Assembly (NCBI RefSeq): GCF_003334785.1
Contig: NZ_QOWV01000002.1
Length of the DNA stretch: 64,000 bases
Reading direction: 5' to 3' (one strand)
Source of the DNA: Escherichia coli
Lineage (GTDB): Bacteria > Pseudomonadota > Gammaproteobacteria > Enterobacterales > Enterobacteriaceae
The notes under the pieces were generated by a model. That model was not told the DNA's origin, did no database searches, and saw only the letters and a program-made list of their open reading frames with translations. Positions within the stretch are counted from its first letter, which is position 1. The number at the start of each line of letters is the position of its first letter. Below are positions 34,846-59,877 of this stretch, one piece after another. Made by a program: the position numbers and the translations under genes.

Positions 34846-34892
34846 AAAACCATAGTGATGTTTTTTGACAATGTGTTAGCTCTTTATCAATA

Positions 34893-35130
34893 GGCCGCAC
34901 GGTTGTTTGGTGGCGTCAAAATTGCCGAGGCGTTCCCTGAAGGCCGGGGCAGCCCACATGGATGTGGGCTGAGGGCGCGTTTTACAGGGATGTTACCTCG
35001 CGCCCGACCCGGTAGCCGTAAGGGATAAGTCGAGGGCACCGCGCAGCGGCGATTTTGTTCGCCAGAGCCCGGGGGTGCAGGGGGCGGCGGCGATTGGCCG
35101 CCCCCTGCGCGCTCCTTGCGCCAGTGATTA
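34893..35130. other. GC-rich, palindrome-dense intergenic element (unclassified)
   Basis: About 240 bp of high GC flanked by AT-rich DNA; perfect inverted repeats CAGCCCACAT-GG-ATGTGGGCTG, GGGCGCG-N19-CGCGCCC and GCAGGGGGCGGC-N8-GCCGCCCCCTGC. Confidence 0.5.
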
Positions 35131-35217
35131 TATGAAGCAATGCACATGACAGGAGCGCAACAGGATGAGAGACTGAAATATTCTCGTTATTTTCGGACCT
35201 GATGACATTAATTAATT

Positions 35218-35301
35218 TTAAAATATCATCTTAAATACGCCAGTCACCACCAGTAGCCCAATCAGGAAAATAATCAATACAGCCCAGAGTATAATTTTCA
35301 T
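35218..35301 (-). CDS. yohP: Small hydrophobic membrane protein (27 aa)
   Basis: Reverse-complement translation MKIILWAVLIIFLIGLLVVTGVFKMIF, below the ORF-track size cutoff; recognised from memory as YohP. Confidence 0.75.
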   Translation of the reverse strand: MKIILWAVLIIFLIGLLVVTGVFKMIF

Positions 35302-35524
35302 TGGCGTTCCTTTATTTGTGAGTGCTGAATAAGTATAGGAAAAAACGAAGCCCTTTGCCGTTATCCATAAACGATTAAGATAAATCGGAAGATATCATTC
35401 ACTTAGTGTATATTTTTCTGGATATGTCGTTTTATTGCCACTGATGTATTGCCACGCGAAACTAAAAAATATATCGCAACACACGGTAATCTCCGCGCAC
35501 CTTTTCTTACCTGATTATTCCCCC

Positions 35525-36961
35525 ATGAATCGTGATTCCTTTTATCCAGCCATCGCCTGTTTTCCGCTGTTACTGATGCTGGCCGGGTGTGCGCCTATGC
35601 ATGAAACCCGCCAGGCGTTAAGCCAGCAAACGCCCGCTGCACAAGTTGACACCGCATTACCCACGGCGCTGAAAAATGGTTGGCCAGACAGCCAATGGTG
35701 GCTGGAGTATCACGATAATCAACTCACTTCCTTAATTAACAATGCACTACAGAACGCACCGGATATGCAGGTGGCTGAACAGCGCATTCAGCTAGCTGAA
35801 GCCCAGGCGAAGGCAGTTGCCACTCAGGATGGTCCGCAGATCGACTTTTCGGCGGATATGGAGCGGCAAAAAATGTCGGCAGAAGGCTTAATGGGGCCGT
35901 TTGCTCTGAACGATCCGGCCGCAGGTACGACCGGCCCGTGGTACACCAACGGTACTTTTGGCTTAACGGCGGGCTGGCATCTCGATATCTGGGGAAAGAA
36001 TCGGGCGGAGGTTACTGCCCGCCTGGGTACGGTTAAAGCACGGGCGGCGGAACGCGAGCAAACCCGCCAATTGCTGGCTGGCAGCGTAGCCCGCCTGTAC
36101 TGGGAGTGGCAAACCCAGGCGGCGTTAAACACGGTCTTGCAGCAAATAGAAAAAGAGCAGAACACCATTATCGCGACCGATCGCCAGCTATATCAGAACG
36201 GGATTACTTCTTCAGTTGAAGGTGTGGAAACCGATATTAATGCCAGCAAAACCCGGCAGCAGCTCAACGATGTCGCGGGGAAAATGAAAATTATTGAGGC
36301 ACGGTTAAGCGCACTTACAAATAACCAGACAAAGTCATTGAAGCTTAAACCGGTCGCGTTGCCGAAAGTGGCAAGCCAGCTTCCTGATGAACTGGGGTAC
36401 TCCTTACTGGCCCGGCGGGCAGATTTGCAGGCGGCGCACTGGTACGTTGAGTCATCGCTAAGCACCATTGATGCGGCAAAAGCGGCATTTTATCCTGACA
36501 TCAACCTGATGGCCTTCCTGCAACAGGATGCGTTGCACTTAAGCGATCTGTTCCGTCATTCCGCGCAGCAAATGGGCGTTACGGCAGGCCTGACGCTACC
36601 CATTTTCGATAGTGGTCGTCTTAACGCCAATCTCGATATCGCAAAAGCCGAAAGCAACTTGTCTATCGCCAGCTACAACAAAGCGGTGGTTGAAGCGGTG
36701 AATGACGTGGCGCGGGCAGCCAGTCAGGTTCAGACACTGGCGGAGAAAAACCAGCATCAGGCGCAAATTGAGCGCGATGCCTTGCGTGTGGTAGGTCTTG
36801 CGCAGGCGCGCTTTAACGCGGGCATCATTGCTGGTTCCCGCGTCAGCGAAGCCAGAATCCCCGCGCTGCGTGAGCGGGCCAATGGCCTGTTATTGCAAGG
36901 GCAGTGGCTGGATGCCTCCATTCAACTCACTGGTGCGTTGGGCGGGGGTTACAAACGCTGA
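35525..36961 (+). CDS. mdtQ: Outer membrane efflux lipoprotein (NodT/OprM family), apparently intact
   Basis: 478-aa ORF from MNRDSFYPAIACFPLLLMLAGC (lipobox LAGC); the uninterrupted frame extends further upstream to 35435. Confidence 0.85.
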   Translation: MNRDSFYPAIACFPLLLMLAGCAPMHETRQALSQQTPAAQVDTALPTALKNGWPDSQWWLEYHDNQLTSLINNALQNAPDMQVAEQRIQLAEAQAKAVATQDGPQIDFSADMERQKMSAEGLMGPFALNDPAAGTTGPWYTNGTFGLTAGWHLDIWGKNRAEVTARLGTVKARAAEREQTRQLLAGSVARLYWEWQTQAALNTVLQQIEKEQNTIIATDRQLYQNGITSSVEGVETDINASKTRQQLNDVAGKMKIIEARLSALTNNQTKSLKLKPVALPKVASQLPDELGYSLLARRADLQAAHWYVESSLSTIDAAKAAFYPDINLMAFLQQDALHLSDLFRHSAQQMGVTAGLTLPIFDSGRLNANLDIAKAESNLSIASYNKAVVEAVNDVARAASQVQTLAEKNQHQAQIERDALRVVGLAQARFNAGIIAGSRVSEARIPALRERANGLLLQGQWLDASIQLTGALGGGYKR

Positions 36962-48727: not shown

Positions 48728-49459
48728 TTAAATGCCGAGTGGGAAAATATCATGGCCTTGTTCTTGCCAACTGGTGAGTTGCTGCTGTTGGGCGGAGGTT
48801 CGATTTTCACCGCACCACACCAGCAATGTACGGCCTTCGAATAGTTCAGGGCGTAGTTGATTGAGCGAGTGGGCGAGGACATCAATGCGCCATCCTTGTT
48901 GACTGGCAATCCAGCCCTCCAGCCACAGACGGGTGGTATCCTGAATATTCCAGCCAACCACCAGCGCATCTTTACCCTGTTTTTTACGTGCCGAAGCCAG
49001 ACAAATGGCGATGTAGTTGATCAGTACGCCGTCGAGGATCGCCAGCAGCGCCTGGAGAGTCGGTTGTTGGCACTGAAGCCGTCGGCGCAGAGGAATAAAC
49101 AGATGTGTGGTGAGTGTCTGGGCGGGGTAATCCTGACCGCGCTCTTTGATCCACGTTCGCAGGCTATGTAGATTGCCGCTTTGCAGGTAAGTCAGTAATG
49201 TTTCTTGCTGATCGCGCCAGCCGTTCTGCACATCAACATTTTCATTACTGAGCAGCATTTTAACTTTGCTGACCTGCACGCCGTTGTCGATCCAGCGTTT
49301 GATCTCGCGGATCCGGTCAATATCGGCATCGTTGAACAGCCGATGACCGCCGTCTGTCCGTTGCGGTTTCAGCAATCCGTAACGCCTCTGCCACGCGCGT
49401 AACGTGACAGGATTAATATCACAAAGCAACGCCACTTCACCAATTGTGTAAAGCGCCAT
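48728..49459 (-). CDS. mlrA: MerR-family transcriptional regulator (curli regulator MlrA)
   Basis: 243-aa ORF with N-terminal MerR HTH (MALYTIGEVALLCDINPVTLRAWQRRYGL). Confidence 0.92.
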   Translation of the reverse strand: MALYTIGEVALLCDINPVTLRAWQRRYGLLKPQRTDGGHRLFNDADIDRIREIKRWIDNGVQVSKVKMLLSNENVDVQNGWRDQQETLLTYLQSGNLHSLRTWIKERGQDYPAQTLTTHLFIPLRRRLQCQQPTLQALLAILDGVLINYIAICLASARKKQGKDALVVGWNIQDTTRLWLEGWIASQQGWRIDVLAHSLNQLRPELFEGRTLLVWCGENRTSAQQQQLTSWQEQGHDIFPLGI

Positions 49460-49680
49460 CGTCTCACCCTTGCTCGCGAGGTCCCGGTTTAACTTTAGAC
49501 GCAGTTTTGCGAACCAGGTAGTTTTGCCCGTTTTTTGTGCATCTATAGGGTGATTTTATTTTTGCCAGGCGATTTTGAGTGATCGTACTCACGAATTCTC
49601 ATTTTTCTGCAAGAGTTCAAAGAAAGTTAAACGCAGGCAATGTATGTTACGCGTTTTAAAGGGAAGTGTGGTTTGCGGGT

Positions 49681-51366
49681 ATGTACGATTTTAATCTGGT
49701 GTTGCTGCTGCTTCAGCAGATGTGCGTTTTTTTAGTCATTGCGTGGTTAATGAGTAAAACGCCATTATTCATACCGTTAATGCAGGTCACGGTTCGTCTG
49801 CCGCATAAATTTCTCTGCTACATCGTCTTTTCCATCTTCTGCATCATGGGCACCTGGTTTGGGTTGCACATTGACGATTCTATTGCCAATACCCGTGCGA
49901 TAGGCGCGGTAATGGGCGGCTTACTCGGCGGTCCGGTCGTCGGTGGGCTGGTTGGTCTGACCGGCGGCTTACATCGATATTCGATGGGGGGCATGACCGC
50001 GCTAAGTTGCATGATCTCAACCATCGTTGAAGGATTGCTCGGCGGCCTGGTACACAGCATCCTGATCCGTCGCGGGCGCACTGATAAAGTCTTTAACCCC
50101 ATTACCGCCGGTGCCGTCACGTTCGTCGCTGAAATGGTGCAAATGTTGATCATCCTGGCGATCGCCCGACCTTATGAAGATGCGGTACGTCTGGTGAGTA
50201 ATATTGCTGCGCCAATGATGGTCACCAATACCGTCGGCGCGGCGCTGTTTATGCGTATATTGCTCGATAAACGCGCGATGTTTGAAAAATACACTTCAGC
50301 TTTTTCTGCCACTGCGCTGAAAGTGGCGGCCTCGACGGAAGGCATTTTGCGCCAGGGGTTTAACGAAGTGAACAGCATGAAAGTGGCACAGGTGCTGTAT
50401 CAGGAGCTGGATATTGGTGCAGTCGCGATTACCGATCGAGAGAAATTGCTAGCCTTTACCGGAATTGGTGACGACCACCATTTACCCGGCAAACCGATTT
50501 CTTCGACTTATACCTTAAAAGCGATTGAAACCGGTGAAGTGGTCTACGCTGATGGCAACGAAGTACCTTACCGTTGCTCTTTGCATCCGCAATGCAAACT
50601 GGGGTCGACGCTGGTAATTCCGTTGCGTGGTGAAAATCAGCGGGTGATGGGCACCATCAAATTGTATGAAGCCAAAAACCGTTTATTCAGTTCAATCAAC
50701 CGCACGCTGGGCGAGGGGATTGCGCAACTGCTTTCGGCGCAGATCCTTGCCGGGCAATATGAGCGGCAAAAAGCGATGCTCACCCAGTCAGAGATCAAAC
50801 TGCTTCACGCCCAGGTGAATCCCCATTTTTTGTTTAATGCGCTTAACACCATTAAAGCGGTGATCCGTCGCGACAGCGAACAGGCCAGCCAGCTGGTGCA
50901 GTATCTTTCCACTTTTTTCCGCAAAAACTTAAAGCGGCCTTCGGAGTTTGTTACTCTCGCCGACGAAATTGAACATGTGAATGCTTATCTGCAAATTGAA
51001 AAGGCGCGCTTCCAGTCGCGGTTGCAGGTCAACATTGCTATTCCGCAAGAATTATCCCAGCAGCAATTGCCCGCGTTTACCCTGCAACCGATAGTGGAAA
51101 ACGCCATTAAACATGGGACATCACAACTGCTGGATACAGGGCGAGTGGCAATCAGCGCCCGACGTGAGGGGCAACATTTAATGCTGGAGATCGAAGACAA
51201 TGCCGGTTTGTATCAACCGGTAACCAATGCCAGTGGGCTGGGGATGAATCTGGTGGATAAGCGTTTACGTGAACGGTTTGGCGATGACTATGGGATAAGC
51301 GTCGCCTGTGAGCCTGATAGTTACACCCGAATAACGTTACGACTACCATGGAGGGACGAGGCATGA
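49681..51366 (+). CDS. btsS: LytS-type sensor histidine kinase (pyruvate-responsive BtsS)
   Basis: ORF from [13 protein letters not shown]...: 5TM-Lyt membrane domain, GAF-like region, His kinase core (HFLFNALN). Confidence 0.9.
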
Positions 51367-52082
51367 TTAAAGTCTTAATTGTCGATGATGAACCGTTAGC
51401 ACGGGAGAACCTGCGCGTATTTTTGCAGGAGCAGAGCGATATTGAAATCGTTGGTGAGTGTTCAAACGCCGTGGAAGGGATCGGCGCGGTGCATAAACTG
51501 CGCCCGGATGTGCTGTTTCTCGATATCCAGATGCCGCGCATCAGTGGTCTGGAAATGGTGGGGATGCTCGACCCGGAACATCGTCCGTATATTGTTTTTC
51601 TCACCGCGTTTGACGAATACGCCATTAAAGCCTTTGAAGAACACGCCTTTGATTATCTGCTGAAGCCAATTGATGAAGCGCGACTGGAGAAAACGCTGGC
51701 GCGTTTGCGGCAGGAACGCAGCAAGCAGGATGTTTCGCTGTTACCAGAAAATCAACAGGCGCTGAAATTTATCCCTTGTACTGGGCATAGTCGGATTTAT
51801 TTGCTGCAAATGAAAGATGTGGCATTTGTCAGCAGTCGGATGAGCGGTGTCTACGTTACCAGCCACGAAGGGAAAGAGGGCTTTACCGAATTGACATTAC
51901 GTACCCTGGAAAGTCGTACACCACTACTGCGCTGCCATCGTCAGTATCTGGTTAACCTCGCGCATTTACAGGAGATTCGTCTGGAAGATAACGGCCAGGC
52001 CGAGTTGATTTTGCGTAATGGCTTAACCGTGCCGGTCAGCCGCCGTTATCTGAAAAGCTTAAAAGAGGCGATTGGCCTGTAA
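51363..52082 (+). CDS. btsR: LytTR-family response regulator BtsR
   Basis: ORF from [16 protein letters not shown]... with receiver domain and C-terminal LytTR; start overlaps btsS stop. Confidence 0.92.
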
Positions 52083-52128
52083 AAGACTGCTAAAATGGCT
52101 TTTTGCCTCATCAACACCTGAAGGCCTC

Positions 52129-52599
52129 ATGCTAAGTAACGATATTCTGCGCAGCGTGCGCTACATTTTGAAAGCCAATAATAATGACCTGGTGCGTATT
52201 CTGGCGCTGGGTAATGTCGAAGCCACCGCGGAACAGATCGCCGTCTGGCTACGTAAAGAAGACGAAGAGGGTTTTCAGCGTTGTCCGGACATTGTTTTGT
52301 CGTCATTCCTCAATGGCCTGATTTATGAAAAACGCGGCAAGGATGAGTCTGCTCCGGCACTGGAGCCGGAACGTCGCATTAATAACAACATCGTGCTGAA
52401 AAAATTACGCATCGCGTTTTCGCTGAAAACCGATGACATTCTGGCGATCCTCACCGAACAGCAGTTCCGCGTTTCGATGCCGGAAATTACGGCGATGATG
52501 CGTGCACCGGATCATAAAAACTTCCGCGAATGCGGCGATCAATTTTTACGTTATTTTCTGCGTGGACTGGCAGCGCGCCAGCATGTGAAGAAAAGCTAA
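52129..52599 (+). CDS. yehS: DUF1456-family protein
   Basis: 156-aa ORF from MLSNDILRSVRYILK. Confidence 0.85.
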   Translation: MLSNDILRSVRYILKANNNDLVRILALGNVEATAEQIAVWLRKEDEEGFQRCPDIVLSSFLNGLIYEKRGKDESAPALEPERRINNNIVLKKLRIAFSLKTDDILAILTEQQFRVSMPEITAMMRAPDHKNFRECGDQFLRYFLRGLAARQHVKKS

Positions 52600-52608
52600 G
52601 ACGGGTAT

Positions 52609-52633
52609 GGCGGCCATGCGAAACATGGCCGCC
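52609..52633. terminator. Bidirectional hairpin between convergent yehS and yehR
   Basis: Perfect 10-bp stem GGCGGCCATG / CATGGCCGCC with CGAAA loop. Confidence 0.6.
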
Positions 52634-52639
52634 GACAGA

Positions 52640-53101
52640 TTATTTCACTTCTTTAAAACCAGCGGCTTTCATCACCAGTTCCATTTGCGCCATAGTGATA
52701 CCTTTTTTGGCATCTTCAGCAGAAACGTTGATTCCTGAAATACCATGCAGGGCTTTAAAATCCACTTTTTCCATATCGATAGTCACGTTTTCCTGCGCGT
52801 AGGTATCGGTATAGGTTAATTTTTCTTCAACACCCGCGATGTTTTTGTATTTGGCGCTTAACGGCTCAAGTGCCCTGGCAGCATCTTCTTTGGTGGTTGC
52901 ACCAATGGAGGCAAATTGAATTTTGGTTTCAGAAGATTGCTTAAGCACCTTGTCACCTTTGTAGACATAGGTAATGGCAATTTCAGTGCCGTTCAGATTG
53001 GCGCTGAATTTCTTCGATTCTTCTTTGTCACCGCAGCCAGCAAGAGAGAAAACCAGAACAGATGCAACAACGAGGGAAAACAGCTTATTGAAAGCCTTCA
53101 T
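52640..53101 (-). CDS. yehR: Lipoprotein (DUF1307)
   Basis: 153-aa ORF from MKAFNKLFSLVVASVLVFSLAGC (lipobox). Confidence 0.88.
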   Translation of the reverse strand: MKAFNKLFSLVVASVLVFSLAGCGDKEESKKFSANLNGTEIAITYVYKGDKVLKQSSETKIQFASIGATTKEDAARALEPLSAKYKNIAGVEEKLTYTDTYAQENVTIDMEKVDFKALHGISGINVSAEDAKKGITMAQMELVMKAAGFKEVK

Positions 53102-53225
53102 GTAAAACTCCATTTTATTTAATCAAGAAACTGGTGACTCTCACCAGGGGCTATATAGAATATGCCTAATACCGTGGCGTGAGCAGTCCGGAACTGGAGT
53201 AGAACTCTTAGTAAAAAGCACTATT

Positions 53226-55229
53226 TCATCCTTGTTGCTGAAGCATGGGGAATAATTGTTCGCAAAGCAAAACACCGTTATTCATTGCTTCTACCCGTGC
53301 CTCGCTTTCTGTATTACGAAATTGTGCCAACACATGTGCCAGCCGATAAAAACCCACCGCGGTGAGGTCATTCGCCAGCAACTCTGCCTGACTAATAGCG
53401 CTCTGTTCCTGATAGCGCCAGCCGTTATGGAGCAGTTGAATAAGTAACGCCTGGCAGCGCATCAGCAACTGATGAGCAGTAGACGGCACAGGCAGAACGC
53501 TGGTAGAAGGTAGTGATACCACCACAGGCGCAGTTTCTGCGTCCAGCGCCCAGGCACGAGTCTTTGTCATCATTACCTGTGGTTCCAGTGTCAATTGCCC
53601 ATCAACAAAACTGACAAAGCCAGAAACCAGATACACGGGGTCGTCTGTTTGTTGCAAAAGCGCCGCCATGCGTTCAACGGCATAAGGCGCGCTGGCTGAG
53701 GCTGGCAGTGATAACGTCAGCAGATTATCTTCACCTTCGCCGCTGATTACCTGCGCATCCAGCGTCTGGCGGCTGCTATCCCAACCGAGCGAAATACACT
53801 CAGCGACCGGCAGAATAAATAAGTTATCGACCTGATTAAGAGGCCGTATGCAGGCGGGGGGACGCTGGCGTAAATATTCCCGCAAAGCCACAATGCCCGG
53901 CTGGCGTAACGGCGCGCTCAACATTTGCCAGGCATCAGGCGACAGCGGCACAACGCTGCTTAAGCGGTTGCGGGTAGCTAACAGCAGCTCGCCATCGGCA
54001 CTGCGTTTTGCTGCTTGTGAAACAATTTGCCCGCCCGCCAGTGCGCCAGCCTGAAAACTAAACAGCCGACGCGTAGCTGCCGGTGAGTTTTCCTGTTCAC
54101 TTCGCGGCCAACTGCGCGAAAGGTGCAAAATACTGCCGGTGTCGGGATCGGTAAACCAGATGCGTAAACCATAATGCTCAATATCCTGCCAGCAACGCAT
54201 ACCTAAAGACACCAGCCGCAGATGATCAAGCTTTGCTTCTCCGGCAATGCCTGCGCCAACGACCGTGCGCCACGGCATGGGAGGAATTTCACCAACACTG
54301 TCGCGCTGCGCCATTTCGTGTGCGCAATTTAATCGACTGTTTAATGCGGCAAGCTGACACAAGCATTCTCCGGCATGATAATGGCTTGCGCGGGCGTGGA
54401 AGGCATCAACGCTGGCGCGCAGTTGCCGTAGCGATTCACTCACCCATCGCCAGTTGCAGCGTTCCGCCGCTTGCTGCGCGCGGCTGAAAGCGGCCTCGTA
54501 GTGAATAAGCGGCTGGCTGATGCCGCCAAGCCATAATGCCTGGCTTAATTGCTGAACATATTGACGACACGTTTGGCCTTCTTCGCTGGCAAACGGATCG
54601 TCAGATGATGTGACGTGTTCGCTGCGCATCTGCCAGATTAAATGGTTAAATTCTGCTTGCTGCGCTTTGGCCTCGACGAAGGCCTGTACCGCCAGTACGA
54701 TATGTTCGCAAAGAGTGCCTTCAATACAATCACAACGGGCGAAACGAATGCTGCTGCGGGAATAAAAACGCACATCGCTCATCGGTAAGCGGGCAGAGGG
54801 AATTTCGCCCGGCGTACAGAACAACTCAATGGTGATGCCTTTAGCGACCAGCGCCTGCGCGCGTTTGCGGGTGGCATCGGGCAGGGTAGCCAGTTCTTCC
54901 AGCCAGATTGCCGGATCCCACTCTTCTTCTTTTTCCGCAGGCTGGGCGGTAGCACAAAGTCGTTGATAACTTAACACCAGCATCACGCGATGACGGCACA
55001 TGCCGCTGGCCCCACAGGTGCACTGAGCCTCTTTCAGTGCCTGGCCGTTCGCCAGCTGGGTACGGACACCGTCACTGAAGGTGGCGATTAAAGCGCCGTT
55101 CTCATGGCTGATTTCCGGGACGTTGCCATTTTCCAGTTCCTTAAGGCTGCGCTTAACAAAACCGGCATTGCTTAACGCCGTCAGTGCCTGTGGTGTCAGT
55201 TCTAATAATTCCGGACGTAGTGAATTCAT
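53226..55229 (-). CDS. yehQ: SWIM zinc-finger-motif protein of the yehLMPQ cluster
   Basis: N-terminal CTCGASGMCRHRV (C-x-C...C-x-H); start at 55229 overlaps yehP stop (ATGA), alternative ATG at 55253. Confidence 0.85.
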   Translation of the reverse strand: MNSLRPELLELTPQALTALSNAGFVKRSLKELENGNVPEISHENGALIATFSDGVRTQLANGQALKEAQCTCGASGMCRHRVMLVLSYQRLCATAQPAEKEEEWDPAIWLEELATLPDATRKRAQALVAKGITIELFCTPGEIPSARLPMSDVRFYSRSSIRFARCDCIEGTLCEHIVLAVQAFVEAKAQQAEFNHLIWQMRSEHVTSSDDPFASEEGQTCRQYVQQLSQALWLGGISQPLIHYEAAFSRAQQAAERCNWRWVSESLRQLRASVDAFHARASHYHAGECLCQLAALNSRLNCAHEMAQRDSVGEIPPMPWRTVVGAGIAGEAKLDHLRLVSLGMRCWQDIEHYGLRIWFTDPDTGSILHLSRSWPRSEQENSPAATRRLFSFQAGALAGGQIVSQAAKRSADGELLLATRNRLSSVVPLSPDAWQMLSAPLRQPGIVALREYLRQRPPACIRPLNQVDNLFILPVAECISLGWDSSRQTLDAQVISGEGEDNLLTLSLPASASAPYAVERMAALLQQTDDPVYLVSGFVSFVDGQLTLEPQVMMTKTRAWALDAETAPVVVSLPSTSVLPVPSTAHQLLMRCQALLIQLLHNGWRYQEQSAISQAELLANDLTAVGFYRLAHVLAQFRNTESEARVEAMNNGVLLCEQLFPMLQQQG

Positions 55230-56362
55230 GACTGAAGGTTCTCTGCAAGCCATGATGCCAGCTCGCCCGGCGTCATGGCGGCTATTTGTGCGCCGACATT
55301 AACCAGCGCCTGGGCCGTATCGCGGTCATAGCAAGGCGTTGCTGTGCTATCGAGCGCTGCCAGTCCCAGCACTTTGATGCCGCTCTGGACACACTTTTTC
55401 ACCTGATGCGTCAGCAATGATGATGAACCCCCTTCATAAAAATCGCTCACGAGGATAATGACGCTTTTTGCTGGTTGTTCAATAAGTTGCCGACCATACT
55501 CCACGGCACTGGCGATATTGGTTCCGCCGCCCAGTTGTACTTTCATTAATAGTTCTACCGGATCGGCAACGTCTGCCGTGAGATCAACGACGCTTGTGTC
55601 AAACGCCACCAGATGGGTACGAATGCCGGGTAACTGCCACAAACAGGCCGCCATCACCGCAGAGTGGATCACCGAATCGACCATCGAGCCGCTTTGATCA
55701 ACCAGTAAGACCAGTTGCCATTGTTCGCTTTGGCGTTTAATGCGGCTGTTAAATCGGGGGGATTCGATATACAACTTGCCGTGTTGCGGGTGCCAGTGTT
55801 GCAGGTTGGCGCGCAGAGTACTTTTGAAATCAAAGTTTCGCGCCAGTGGAATAAATGAGCGGCGACGGCGATCGCGGACACCAGAAAAAGCCTGACGAAC
55901 TTCCTTTGCCAGTCGAGCCATAATTTCTTCAACAACCTGGCGCACTATCCGGCGGGCGGTAGCCAGTACTTCGGGGTTCATCAGATGTTTGGTATGCAAA
56001 ACGGCGCGTAGCAGGCTTTCAGAAGGCTGCATACGTTCCAGCACGTCGAGATTCGTCACCACATCTTCAATGCCATAGCGCAGTACGGCATCGCTTTCCA
56101 GCCGCTCAATCACCTGTTGCGGAAACAGCGTGTGAATACTGTTGATCCACTCAGGGGTGGTGAGATTTGAGCCACCTAATCCACCGGAGCGTTCACCACG
56201 CTGGAGCCGTTCAGGATCGCGCCCATACAGCCATTCCAGCGCGTGGTCTATCTGCCGGGCGTTGTCATCCAGCCCACAAAGCGTCGTTTCTGCCGCTTCG
56301 CCAAGAATTAATCGCCAGCGTTGTAGCTCACGGGGGGTCAGAAGATCGTTCAGTTCAGACAT
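55226..56362 (-). CDS. yehP: von Willebrand factor A (VWA) domain protein
   Basis: 378-aa ORF from MSELNDLLTPRELQ...; MIDAS-like DQSGS in C-terminal half. Confidence 0.88.
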   Translation of the reverse strand: MSELNDLLTPRELQRWRLILGEAAETTLCGLDDNARQIDHALEWLYGRDPERLQRGERSGGLGGSNLTTPEWINSIHTLFPQQVIERLESDAVLRYGIEDVVTNLDVLERMQPSESLLRAVLHTKHLMNPEVLATARRIVRQVVEEIMARLAKEVRQAFSGVRDRRRRSFIPLARNFDFKSTLRANLQHWHPQHGKLYIESPRFNSRIKRQSEQWQLVLLVDQSGSMVDSVIHSAVMAACLWQLPGIRTHLVAFDTSVVDLTADVADPVELLMKVQLGGGTNIASAVEYGRQLIEQPAKSVIILVSDFYEGGSSSLLTHQVKKCVQSGIKVLGLAALDSTATPCYDRDTAQALVNVGAQIAAMTPGELASWLAENLQS

Positions 56363-58634
56363 GGAAAACTCCCCAGTGTTGCAGCGATGCCAGTGCCTGC
56401 TGTTCGAGTTGTTGATGATGTGCAATGGCCTGTGGTGGACAATGCAACGGCATTTGCAGCGCTGAAACAGGAAGCTGCGCAAGCTGGTAATGCTCAAGCA
56501 CCTGATGCGCCAGCGTCCCGCGTTCTCGTGGCGGTAGCCAGGCCATTGCCGCGCGTAAATCGGGCAGGGCGTTAATAAAATCGTCGTCACTTAGTTGATT
56601 TAAATGACTGCTGAAACCGGCGATAAATGCAGGTTGACAGGCCAGTTGATGACGGGCTAATGCCAGCAAACCGTGCAGCGCCTCACCGGATTGTGCCGGG
56701 GATAACTGCGCCAGCATCGTCAGCGCCGCTTCGGCACTGGCGTTGGGATGTTCCAGACGCATTAGTGCGCCAAGAGCCGCGCCGCGATCCAGCGCCGGGG
56801 CATGAATCGCCTGACTGCGTCGCTCCAGTAAGGCTACCGCCGCAGAAAGAGAAACGCCGGGTAAATTAACGCCGCTATGTAGATCGCGCAGGATATGGCA
56901 AAGCGCTTGCCAGCTATGCAGGTGAGCGTGAAACTCCTTTTCATCCGGTCTGCCGTTAGATTCACACAGCCACAGCGTGCGATCGATAGCCGCGCATAAC
57001 GTCGTTTGTAATATCTGCGCGCCTTGCATACCGCTAATTTCATCCAGCCGCCATAAGGCATATAGCACTTCCAGCGCCTGGCCCATTTCGGCAAATTGAT
57101 TTTCCTGGGCGATTAATAATGTGAGTTGCTCCAGTAATTGTTGACTGAAGGACGCCAGACCCGCTAACGCCGCCTGGCTAAGACATGTGGTGATACTGCC
57201 GATTCCACCCGTGTCCAGCATATCGGCTTCTAATTTATGGCGTGCGGCTTCCTGGAGTGTTGCACCAAAGCAGGCGGCCTCAATCAATGCCGCATGCTGG
57301 CTAAGCGGGCGGGTTAATTTCCAGTGTTCTTCACCGTTGCCTGCAAGTGTCAGTGTACTTCCCTGCTGGCGTACAATCCCTGGGATCTCCAGTATTGCCA
57401 GCCGATGTAACACCTGACTTTGCGCTAGTCCATTGGGGTTAAAGCGATTTAAGGTAAGCTCCGCCGGAAGAGAGATTGCGGTACGTTCCAGTTCGCAGGT
57501 GACATCTTTTGGCAGAGGCGGTTGTGGCGTAGAAGGGGCAAGTTTACCGAATCCGTCACCCGCTAATGTGTCTATCAACGTTAGCAGAATCGGATCGGTA
57601 TCGGGATGAATAACGCCGCGATAGCTCCACGGCAACGGCGCATTCAGGGCTTCTTTAATCAGCGAGCCTGCTAAGGCATCCAGCCAGTCAGTGCGTAACG
57701 GTAGTGTATGACCGCGCAACTGTGCCAGCGCCATCGCATGCAGATGAGCGGCAGCCATATCCGCGGTAGAAGCGGGCAATTTGTGCTGGCGCAAACGGGT
57801 AAGGATAGTTTTTAGCAGTTGTTCACCGGCCTTCTGCAAGCCCCACTGCCAGCACCAGTTTTGCCATACCGGGGCAGGCATTCCTGAAAGGTATCCTGCC
57901 AGCACATCAAGGCGCTTTTCACTGTAGGGTGTGAGATAACAACCTGTAACGGCATCTGCCAGCGAGGGCAATTCTGGCTTGTTAATTTCCTGAGGGCATT
58001 CGCGCCACATCTTTGCCAGTGCCGGAGCGTGCCAGCCACCGCAGACAACCAATACGTCGCCATCATTTTGCTGCATCGCCCATCCAATCCAGCGGGTCAT
58101 AAAGGCTTCGCGCTGACGATTGAGTACATCGCCGGGGGAATCGCCGCGCAGTTGGGCAAAATAGTGCGCCAGCGCAGAGGGTAATGCAATTTGCTGGCTT
58201 TCATCTTCGAACAAGTGATCCCACAGGGTGTCGCTGTTATCCATGCGGGTGGCACGCAGCAGCAAGGTCTGGCTTTCCTCTTGCGTATCAGGCGAATCGT
58301 CCTCTTCTTCACTCTGCGCCCAGCAAGGCAAATCGATGAAGTAAGTTTGTGCCTGAATACAACGAGCGGCTTGTAGCGCCTGCCACTCCGGCGAAAATTC
58401 AGCAAATGGCGTCCAGGCACCACGCCCGGGGGCTGCACCGTCCTGATACTGGCAATAACTGTAAATAGCTACCGGAAGCTGGTGGGCTAAAAACAGTTCG
58501 TCTACCCGGTCATTAAAATCAGCCGGGCCTTCAATCAACACGTATCGTGGCCGCTGGCTTTCGATTAACGATTTCACCAGCCGGGCGCAGGCCGGACTAT
58601 GATGCCGGATGCCGACAATTAACGGCTCGCTCAT
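56355..58634 (-). CDS. yehM: Large uncharacterised protein of the yehLMPQ cluster
   Basis: 759-aa ORF from MSEPLIVGIRHHSPACARL...; Ala/Leu-rich, probably alpha-helical; 2-nt gap to yehP. Confidence 0.85.
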   Translation of the reverse strand: MSEPLIVGIRHHSPACARLVKSLIESQRPRYVLIEGPADFNDRVDELFLAHQLPVAIYSYCQYQDGAAPGRGAWTPFAEFSPEWQALQAARCIQAQTYFIDLPCWAQSEEEDDSPDTQEESQTLLLRATRMDNSDTLWDHLFEDESQQIALPSALAHYFAQLRGDSPGDVLNRQREAFMTRWIGWAMQQNDGDVLVVCGGWHAPALAKMWRECPQEINKPELPSLADAVTGCYLTPYSEKRLDVLAGYLSGMPAPVWQNWCWQWGLQKAGEQLLKTILTRLRQHKLPASTADMAAAHLHAMALAQLRGHTLPLRTDWLDALAGSLIKEALNAPLPWSYRGVIHPDTDPILLTLIDTLAGDGFGKLAPSTPQPPLPKDVTCELERTAISLPAELTLNRFNPNGLAQSQVLHRLAILEIPGIVRQQGSTLTLAGNGEEHWKLTRPLSQHAALIEAACFGATLQEAARHKLEADMLDTGGIGSITTCLSQAALAGLASFSQQLLEQLTLLIAQENQFAEMGQALEVLYALWRLDEISGMQGAQILQTTLCAAIDRTLWLCESNGRPDEKEFHAHLHSWQALCHILRDLHSGVNLPGVSLSAAVALLERRSQAIHAPALDRGAALGALMRLEHPNASAEAALTMLAQLSPAQSGEALHGLLALARHQLACQPAFIAGFSSHLNQLSDDDFINALPDLRAAMAWLPPRERGTLAHQVLEHYQLAQLPVSALQMPLHCPPQAIAHHQQLEQQALASLQHWGVFHV

Positions 58635-58644
58635 GCATCTTTCC

Positions 58645-59733
58645 TCACGGCAGGCGGTGGCGGGCTTGATAATAAGCCTGCCAGTGAGCTTCTTTATGTG
58701 TGGCGACACGCTGTTCGAAGTAACGGCGCAGACGAGCGCGATCTTCTTCATTATCTTTGACGATGGTTCCGGCAATGCAGTCCACCAGGTCGGCTGGCTC
58801 ACCTGCGCGATTCGCTAAAAACCAGGCGCGGACGCCCACTGCGTGGGCCACGTTCACGGCTTCAGCGGTGGACATAATTGCCGTCAGGGTATCCATTGAC
58901 GTTTTCTTTTCGCCGTTGGCACGCAGATCGCGGAAGGTGCGGACCAGTAACTCCAGTACCGCGTCAGGCACTTTATGCGGAATACCGCTATGGGCCAGCA
59001 AACGCGCCGAAGCACTGGCGACCAGTTCCAGCTCCTGGGCGAAATCCATAATCGGAAAGACAGTTTCAAAATCGAAGCGACGCTTTAGCGCGGCACTCAT
59101 CTCATTGACGCCGCGATCGCGGGTATTGGCAGTGGCAATAATATTAAAGCCTTCTCGCGCATAGAGCTGACTGGCTTCACTGGTGAGTTCCGGCACCGTC
59201 ATAACCCGGTCAGAAAGCATACCTAACAGACAGTCTTGCACTTCCAGCGGTGTACGCGTTATCTCTTCAAAACGGACGATTTTGCCGTCGCGCATTCCCT
59301 GATAAAGCGGGGCAGGGACCAGCGCTTCCGTTGACGGACCATGATTGATAAGCAGGGCGTAGTTCCAGCCATACTTGATTTGATCTTCGGTGGTAGATGC
59401 CCCGCCCTGGATGGTTAACCCGGCATCGCCGCTAATAGCGGTTGCCAGTAATTCAGACAGGAGAGATTTTGCGGTGCCAGGTTCCCCCACCAACATCAAA
59501 CCGCGCCCGGTGGCAAGAGTGACTAACATACGTTCGACAGCAGAGGGACTAATCACCACTTTACGGCTAATATTTTGCGCGCTATCGCCAAGGATAAAAG
59601 CACGGGCCGCAGGCAAACTTAACTGCCAACCGGGCGGGCAAGGTGCGTTATCATTTTGTTTTAATTTTGCCAGTTCATCGGCGTATAACACAGCGGCAGG
59701 CGGACGCTGCAGATGATTATTCTGCGGTGACAT
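58645..59733 (-). CDS. yehL: MoxR-like AAA+ ATPase
   Basis: 362-aa ORF from MSPQNNHLQRPPAAV...; Walker A GEPGTAKS; AAA_5-like core. Confidence 0.88.
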   Translation of the reverse strand: MSPQNNHLQRPPAAVLYADELAKLKQNDNAPCPPGWQLSLPAARAFILGDSAQNISRKVVISPSAVERMLVTLATGRGLMLVGEPGTAKSLLSELLATAISGDAGLTIQGGASTTEDQIKYGWNYALLINHGPSTEALVPAPLYQGMRDGKIVRFEEITRTPLEVQDCLLGMLSDRVMTVPELTSEASQLYAREGFNIIATANTRDRGVNEMSAALKRRFDFETVFPIMDFAQELELVASASARLLAHSGIPHKVPDAVLELLVRTFRDLRANGEKKTSMDTLTAIMSTAEAVNVAHAVGVRAWFLANRAGEPADLVDCIAGTIVKDNEEDRARLRRYFEQRVATHKEAHWQAYYQARHRLP

Positions 59734-59843
59734 ATATTCATCCCTGAAATGTATTAATGAAATAAACGATATTTTACGCGCAATAAATGTTTGGCGCATT
59801 AGTTGTTTGAGCGGAAAATATCTGGAAAGCAGATCACAGTAAA

Positions 59844-59877
59844 TAAAAAAACCTGCTGGTGAGGCAGGTTCTTTTAT
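59844..59877 (-). terminator. Rho-independent terminator downstream of yehK, upstream of yehL
   Basis: On minus strand AACCTGCCTCACCAGCAGGTT hairpin followed by TTTTTTTATTT. Confidence 0.75.

Follow-up and report, generated by a model that had tools for sequence, protein, structure and literature searches.

The mdtQ locus and its product

The window analysed here, a stretch of 64,000 nucleotides of E. coli DNA, carries on its plus strand, at positions 35525 to 36961, an intact coding sequence for mdtQ (formerly yohG), recognised from its open reading frame and from matches to the NF008524 and TIGR01845 family models. The frame extends from an ATG at 35525 to a TGA at 36959-36961 and comprises 1437 nt, or 478 amino acids, with zero internal stops; an earlier sequence-only reading had described it as uninterrupted, and 478 codons followed by the TGA can indeed be read from the sequence. 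A frame of 478 open codons and a family match of 1024 bits could not plausibly arise together by chance. Upstream lies the divergent gene yohP (35218-35301, minus strand), which corresponds to b4679 of MG1655 and encodes a small membrane protein of 27 aa with the translation MKIILWAVLIIFLIGLLVVTGVFKMIF followed by a stop. Downstream, after 52 nt, follows yohF (37014-37775, plus strand), an SDR oxidoreductase gene identified from its open reading frame and the MG1655 annotation. A terminator scan found no terminator-like site in the gap between mdtQ and yohF, and it is possible that the two genes are co-transcribed, but the pairing is not an obligatory one, as Citrobacter has no yohF at this place. 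The GC content across mdtQ varies between 50 and 60%, is similar to that of its neighbours, and is native-like.

A mechanical list of open reading frames placed the start of the gene further upstream, at a TTG at 35435, which would give a protein of 508 aa. This start was rejected, as the ATG at 35525 is where the family profile, the RefSeq annotation and the conservation across genera begin. The profile aligns over its positions 1-478, the RefSeq CDS in other strains occupies the identical 1437-nt span, and Escherichia albertii, Salmonella and Citrobacter all have the N-terminal residues M-N-R, and for these reasons the ATG at 35525 is regarded as the real start of mdtQ. A purine-rich Shine-Dalgarno motif is absent from the 20 nt that precede this ATG (ending in CCTGATTATTCCCCC).

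The first 66 nt of the gene (35525-35590, plus strand) encode, as read from the sequence, a lipoprotein signal peptide with the lipobox L-A-G-C, the codon for Cys22 being located at 35588-35590 and an Ala occupying the +2 position, so that the N-terminus of the protein is MNRDSFYPAIACFPLLLMLAGC followed by APMH. The LLMLAGC motif that had been pointed out earlier is therefore present, and its L-A-G-C portion fits the lipobox consensus with Cys22 as the modified residue. The segment A20-G21-C22-A23-P24-M25-H26 is invariant in the orthologues of E. albertii, Salmonella and Citrobacter (counted in this analysis, with E. coli, as four genera). On a motif-based judgement the combination of a lipobox cysteine with a residue other than Asp at +2 agrees with that of NodT-type lipoproteins. 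Under the sorting rule of the Lol system an Ala at +2 leads to the outer membrane, and an outer-membrane localisation is thus predicted for MdtQ.

The assignment of the product to a family is consistent across several models. The NCBIfam equivalog model for MdtQ, NF008524, scored 1024.4 bits where 650 are required, with residues 1-478 aligned to profile positions 1-478, and the NodT subfamily model TIGR01845 scored 274 bits over residues 16-475, its cut-off being 210.05, while the scores obtained with the models for MdtP, CusC-type proteins, AdeK/AdeC and TolC were all under their respective cut-offs. Two outer membrane efflux protein (OEP) repeats (Pfam PF02321) were detected in tandem on the plus strand, the first covering residues 69-266 (35729-36322; E=2.2e-17) and the second residues 293-473 (36401-36943; E=9.8e-13), which is the arrangement expected of the outer membrane factor family (PF02321; TC 1.B.17). 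The earlier description of the gene product as a NodT/OprM-type outer-membrane efflux lipoprotein is in keeping with the TIGR01845 score, the two repeats and the lipobox. Given the NodT score, the two OEP repeats and the identity of its closest solved relatives, the product of mdtQ is, judged by sequence, a typical lipoprotein-type subunit of a TolC-family channel.

By homology to relatives of solved structure, one would expect export of the MdtQ precursor and attachment of lipid to Cys22 in the L-A-G-C motif, with the Ala at +2 directing the mature protein to the outer membrane. There it would assemble as a trimer, each protomer contributing its two OEP repeats to a beta-barrel pore and a long periplasmic alpha-helical tunnel. 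Through this tunnel an inner-membrane transporter, acting with a periplasmic adaptor, could discharge its substrates; both would be encoded elsewhere, and there are no such genes near mdtQ. Trimeric channel function, sorting to the outer membrane and the extrusion of, for example, puromycin and acriflavine would all follow by analogy with related proteins. A drug-susceptibility phenotype has been reported for a null mutant of mdtQ in E. coli (PMC11762307). This phenotype would lend only weak support if it was obtained in a K-12 background, where the gene is already frameshifted. The strains used in the source of the observation, the study by Sulavik et al. of 2001, are said to have been K-12.

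The K-12 frameshift and its distribution

In the MG1655 genome (NC_000913.3) mdtQ, or b2139, is annotated as a pseudogene of 1436 nt, which agrees with the status given to it in the sequence-only reading, and its pseudogene status in K-12 is both published (PMC12719787) and recorded in RefSeq. A pairwise alignment of the gene in the window with b2139 revealed exactly two differences. One is a synonymous substitution in a Gly codon at 36949 (plus strand), where the window has T and MG1655 has G. The other is the pseudogene lesion itself, which resides in a homopolymer run at 35672-35676 (plus strand), within codons Lys50-Asn51 (CTG AAA AAT GGT), that consists of five As in the window (A5) and four in MG1655 (A4). 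Being one A short, the MG1655 sequence is shifted out of frame past Lys50 and reaches a stop after 69 residues, and the remainder of the protein, which then has no signal peptide, is readable solely in a different frame. The window, with A5 and an open frame, differs from this K-12-type pseudogene (A4, stop after 69 residues), so the disruption of MG1655 is absent here, and the alignment places the difference at a single run. The sequence-only interpretation would have had to be abandoned had the frame been identical to that of MG1655; with two differences found, it stands.

The wider context of the gene indicates how the window is related to K-12. Throughout its length the window is collinear with MG1655 positions 2264282-2200329, read as the reverse complement, and over its first 44.6 kb the deletion in mdtQ is the only indel between the two. 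Nine SNPs and this one indel separate the first 42 kb from MG1655 (about 99.98% identity), whereas from about 42 kb onwards the differences cluster and identity falls to about 98%. This mosaic pattern is consistent with a recombination boundary near 42 kb. Several small indels relative to MG1655 are also seen at 44655-64000, on the bglX/osmF to yehI side. An interval of 25 kb (24000-48999) is 100% identical to ML35, NCTC9100, LR-64-2 and one more isolate. In view of this identity and of the pattern of SNPs and indels relative to MG1655, the window is best read as coming from a close relative of K-12 and not from K-12 itself.

A K-12 derivative in which the frameshift had reverted from A4 to A5 would also account for the near identity of the first 42 kb to MG1655 (about 99.98%) with the mdtQ run as sole indel. 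Such a derivative, however, would not be expected to carry the nine further SNPs in these 42 kb, one of them inside mdtQ, nor to diverge from MG1655 by about 2% past roughly 42 kb, nor to share 25 kb at 100% identity with ML35 and NCTC9100, which are not K-12 strains; moreover, other phylogroups and genera have A5. A K-12 revertant is refuted by the remaining differences between the window and MG1655, and the probability left to it is very slight.

The frequencies of the two alleles were determined with probes centred on the A run, of 68 nt for A4 and 69 nt for A5, that were required to match exactly in 5,426 complete E. coli genomes. The A5 probe was found in 4,574 of the 5,426 and the A4 probe in 355, and most of the genomes that matched neither have a SNP near the run. 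All 60 of the A4 matches listed resemble strains of K-12 or laboratory descent: the majority bear the names of K-12 derivatives (MG1655, C600, DH5alpha, DH1, J53, NCM3722, AG100 and others), and the others among these 60 have chromosomes of K-12 size and match at the MG1655 coordinate.

These counts also bear on the notion that a miscounted homopolymer, leaving either a spurious fifth A in the window or one A too few in MG1655, produced the difference. Although a single-base lesion in a homopolymer run is the commonest type of sequencing error, A4 occurs exactly in 355 separately deposited assemblies, the 60 listed being K-12-type or laboratory strains, and A5 in 4,574; in addition, 25 kb of the window are 100% identical to four independent genomes, and the A4 form has been flagged by RefSeq as 'frameshifted' in other records. 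The allele counts effectively refute an artefact of sequencing or assembly, to which we attach hardly any probability at all.

A second view of the distribution was obtained from a sample of 60 genomes, spaced evenly across the range of identity, in which the length of the mdtQ match was scored. A gap-free match of 1437 nt was present in 55 of the 60, and one further genome had a gap-free match in which the first base alone was missing. The K-12-type form of 1436 nt was seen in three (one of which, T177A, is flagged 'frameshifted' by RefSeq), and in the remaining one, STEC379, mdtQ is truncated. A gap-free match does not equate with an open frame, as SCU-387, one of the 55, has an internal stop.

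The residues K50-N51-G52-W53-P54, which the run helps to encode, do not vary between E. albertii, Salmonella and Citrobacter, and this invariance across genera identifies A5 as the ancestral state and A4 as derived in the K-12 lineage. The intact gene is the form of most sequenced E. coli and the allele in the window is an ordinary one; the pseudogene label, as far as the compared sequences go, applies to the K-12 lineage only. We thus consider it highly probable that 35525-36961 represents the ancestral intact allele of mdtQ, whose product belongs within the TolC superfamily to the NodT/OprM lipoprotein branch, and that the lesion is confined to the K-12 lineage. The source of the DNA would then be a phylogroup-A-like close relative of K-12 in which the deletion never occurred. 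That mdtQ is a pseudogene in K-12 and an intact core gene elsewhere is already known, and the finding adds nothing beyond the public genomes and a recent review (PMC11762307). It does call for caution in the transfer of annotation, as the 'pseudogene' label of b2139 is a peculiarity of K-12 that goes back to one lost A and should not be applied to the rest of the species. What K-12 has taught about outer-membrane efflux channels likewise concerns a strain without one of the four TolC-family channels common to most E. coli.

Conservation, loss and the upstream spacer

A full-length comparison with intact orthologues, which had been proposed along with the first description of the frame, shows 94% protein identity to E. 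albertii and 80-82% to Salmonella enterica and many Citrobacter species, the orthologues being annotated as MdtQ. Nei-Gojobori estimates for the window allele against those of O157:H7 FRIK2455, NU14, Ecol_743 and KKa019 gave dS values of 0.04-0.11 and dN/dS ratios of 0.03-0.13, from which purifying selection on mdtQ can be deduced. The gene occupies the orthologous position, between dusC-yohP and yohF-yohD, in MG1655, other E. coli and Salmonella; in the latter the order is dusC-yohP-mdtQ-yohF-yohD-yohC-pbpG-dld-bglX, and the Citrobacter context is like that of Salmonella, except that yohP is replaced by a methyltransferase gene and yohF is missing. A gene for an adaptor or an inner-membrane pump adjoins mdtQ in none of E. 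coli, Salmonella and Citrobacter, and none is present in the 64-kb window as judged by the MG1655 annotation. Taken together, the dN/dS ratios, the dusC/yohD synteny and the invariant lipobox indicate that mdtQ is an old, vertically inherited and maintained orphan outer-membrane factor. Horizontal acquisition of the gene was considered and ruled out by its native-like GC content and the synteny across genera. A review of 2025 places mdtQ in the core genome of the E. coli phylogroups in spite of its pseudogene label (PMC11762307). On the strength of purifying selection and conservation, we infer that the gene is functional in addition to having an intact frame.

At the same time, mdtQ has been lost on several occasions. 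In strain 600055 it is inactivated by an IS421 insertion at a site corresponding to 36008-36019 of the window, and in SCU-387 by a nonsense mutation at codon 53; independent premature stops have been described in Salmonella Typhi and Paratyphi A (PMC9241588). With the K-12 frameshift and the truncated gene of STEC379, these independent inactivations make it evident that mdtQ is dispensable. Some E. coli MdtQ entries in databases have in-frame internal deletions, of 43 aa (a 435-aa form encoded on 43 contigs) or of 24 aa, which shorten the first repeat or the linker. The frame of such forms is 'intact', yet the encoded proteins may be non-functional.

The spacer between yohP and mdtQ (35302-35524) consists of 223 nt with a GC content of 38%. 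It contains a conserved non-coding block, GATGTATTGCCACGCGAAACTAAAAAA, at 35443-35469 (plus strand), 56-82 nt upstream of the mdtQ ATG; E. coli, Salmonella and Citrobacter agree at 26 of its 27 positions, the rest of the spacer being variable. This block may be a promoter or an operator or other regulator site, and its conservation suggests that the regulation of mdtQ has been maintained. A search with Rfam at a permissive threshold gave no match between yohP and mdtQ, the 27-nt block included, and elsewhere only sub-threshold matches of the REP/TRIP type. One sigma-70-like site was noted, at 35202-35229, about 300 nt upstream of mdtQ, but such sites are no more frequent here than in shuffled sequence. 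According to the literature mdtQ is encoded independently, and its promoter is without experimental confirmation (PMC11762307).

The interval between dusC and yohP contains, at about 34889-35161, a GC-rich repetitive stretch with a spurious antisense ORF of 86 aa and a weak TwoAYGGAY-like Rfam match; its position corresponds to that of a TRIP1c repeat between yohI (dusC) and yohG (mdtQ) that has been implicated in chromosomal rearrangements (PMC10888264). Between yohF and yohD, a match to the REP-derived naRNA4 at 37819-37896 (minus strand) remained, with 49.8 bits, under the gathering score of 59.5, and is probably an ordinary REP element.

In a number of other isolates the spacer has been entered by insertion sequences. 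IS1 occurs at 35338-45 in EC24, at 35351-61 in NT1N31, at 35383-91 in SC516 and, only 16 nt before the mdtQ ATG, at 35498-509 in E1648, and ISVsa5 occurs at 35400-08 in MSB1_1D; the mdtQ ORF of all five isolates is 100% identical to that of the window. There have thus been at least five insertions upstream of an intact mdtQ, which are regarded as independent events because the sites differ between strains. A single IS1 clade was considered as a common source and rejected, as the junction probe for E1648 is present in only three genomes and the four other IS-bearing strains have other sites. Among the best matches listed, 18 IS-bearing records were obtained for the mdtQ region and 2 (from one strain) for a neighbouring control region, an excess that, judged against a single control region, is suggestive only. 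It may reflect an AT-rich target hot spot, IS1 preferring AT-rich DNA, or it could reflect selection on the expression of mdtQ. A bolder proposal would make MdtQ a functional, conditionally expressed, TolC-independent exit channel that has been overlooked since K-12 lacks it, with the upstream IS1 and ISVsa5 insertions reflecting selection for altered, for example activated, expression; we regard this proposal as unlikely.

The same insertions could be read in an opposite sense, namely that mdtQ is a cryptic gene whose intact frame is expressed weakly or not at all and is in slow decay, in which case the K-12 frameshift would be one of many neutral losses. Several IS elements in the upstream spacer of other strains are reminiscent of cryptic loci that are activated by insertion sequences, and it would fit such a gene that there is no recognisable Shine-Dalgarno motif ahead of the ATG, that the promoter is neither convincing nor verified, that mdtQ is an orphan without an adjoining adaptor or pump, and that it has been inactivated independently and repeatedly. 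A decaying gene is, however, difficult to reconcile with dN/dS ratios of 0.03-0.13 between deep E. coli lineages, with 80-82% protein identity, an invariant lipobox and a kept position across Escherichia, Salmonella and Citrobacter, with a conserved 27-nt upstream block that suggests retained regulation, with the gap-free 1437-nt match in 55 of 60 sampled genomes, or with the place of mdtQ in the phylogroup core genome (PMC11762307). The probability of a cryptic gene is accordingly low, and an ancestral allele that has been retained under selection is the reading adopted here.

Comparison with known efflux channels

Among proteins of solved structure, the best relative of MdtQ in a sequence search is VceC of Vibrio cholerae (PDB 1yc9), which matched residues 51-477 with E=1e-39; it was followed by OprM, CmeC, SilC, CusC, OprN, MtrE and OprJ. 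The two-repeat OEP architecture is common to VceC and MdtQ, and a trimeric channel-tunnel fold like that of VceC would be expected for MdtQ. VceC is the outer-membrane factor of the VceAB pump and is encoded together with an MFS pump and an adaptor (vceCAB), in contrast to mdtQ, which has no adjacent partner genes.

Within E. coli, the closest paralogue by profile is MdtP (YjcP), the model for which, NF007390, matched MdtQ with E=2.7e-106. The score of 356 bits is nevertheless well under the MdtP cut-off of 597, and an identification of the protein as MdtP was rejected on that basis. Like MdtQ, MdtP is a poorly characterised NodT-type lipoprotein, and similar drug susceptibilities have been reported for null mutants of the two genes; mdtP, however, shares the mdtNOP operon with genes for an adaptor and a transporter, and mdtQ is not part of such an operon (PMC11762307).

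TolC of E. coli is not a lipoprotein, and MdtQ differs from it in having a lipobox; the TolC subfamily model TIGR01844 gave 54 bits on MdtQ against a cut-off of 225, and the identity of the two proteins has been put at only about 12% (PMC11762307).

The match is complete with MdtQ (YohG) as defined in RefSeq (WP_001078139.1; NF008524), which is the same gene as that at 35525-36961. The 1437 nt are 100% identical to the RefSeq mdtQ CDS of many genomes, including those of ATCC 8739, E. coli C and ML35, and nothing sets the sequence in the window apart from this common allele, with which it also shares its position between yohP/dusC and yohF/yohD.
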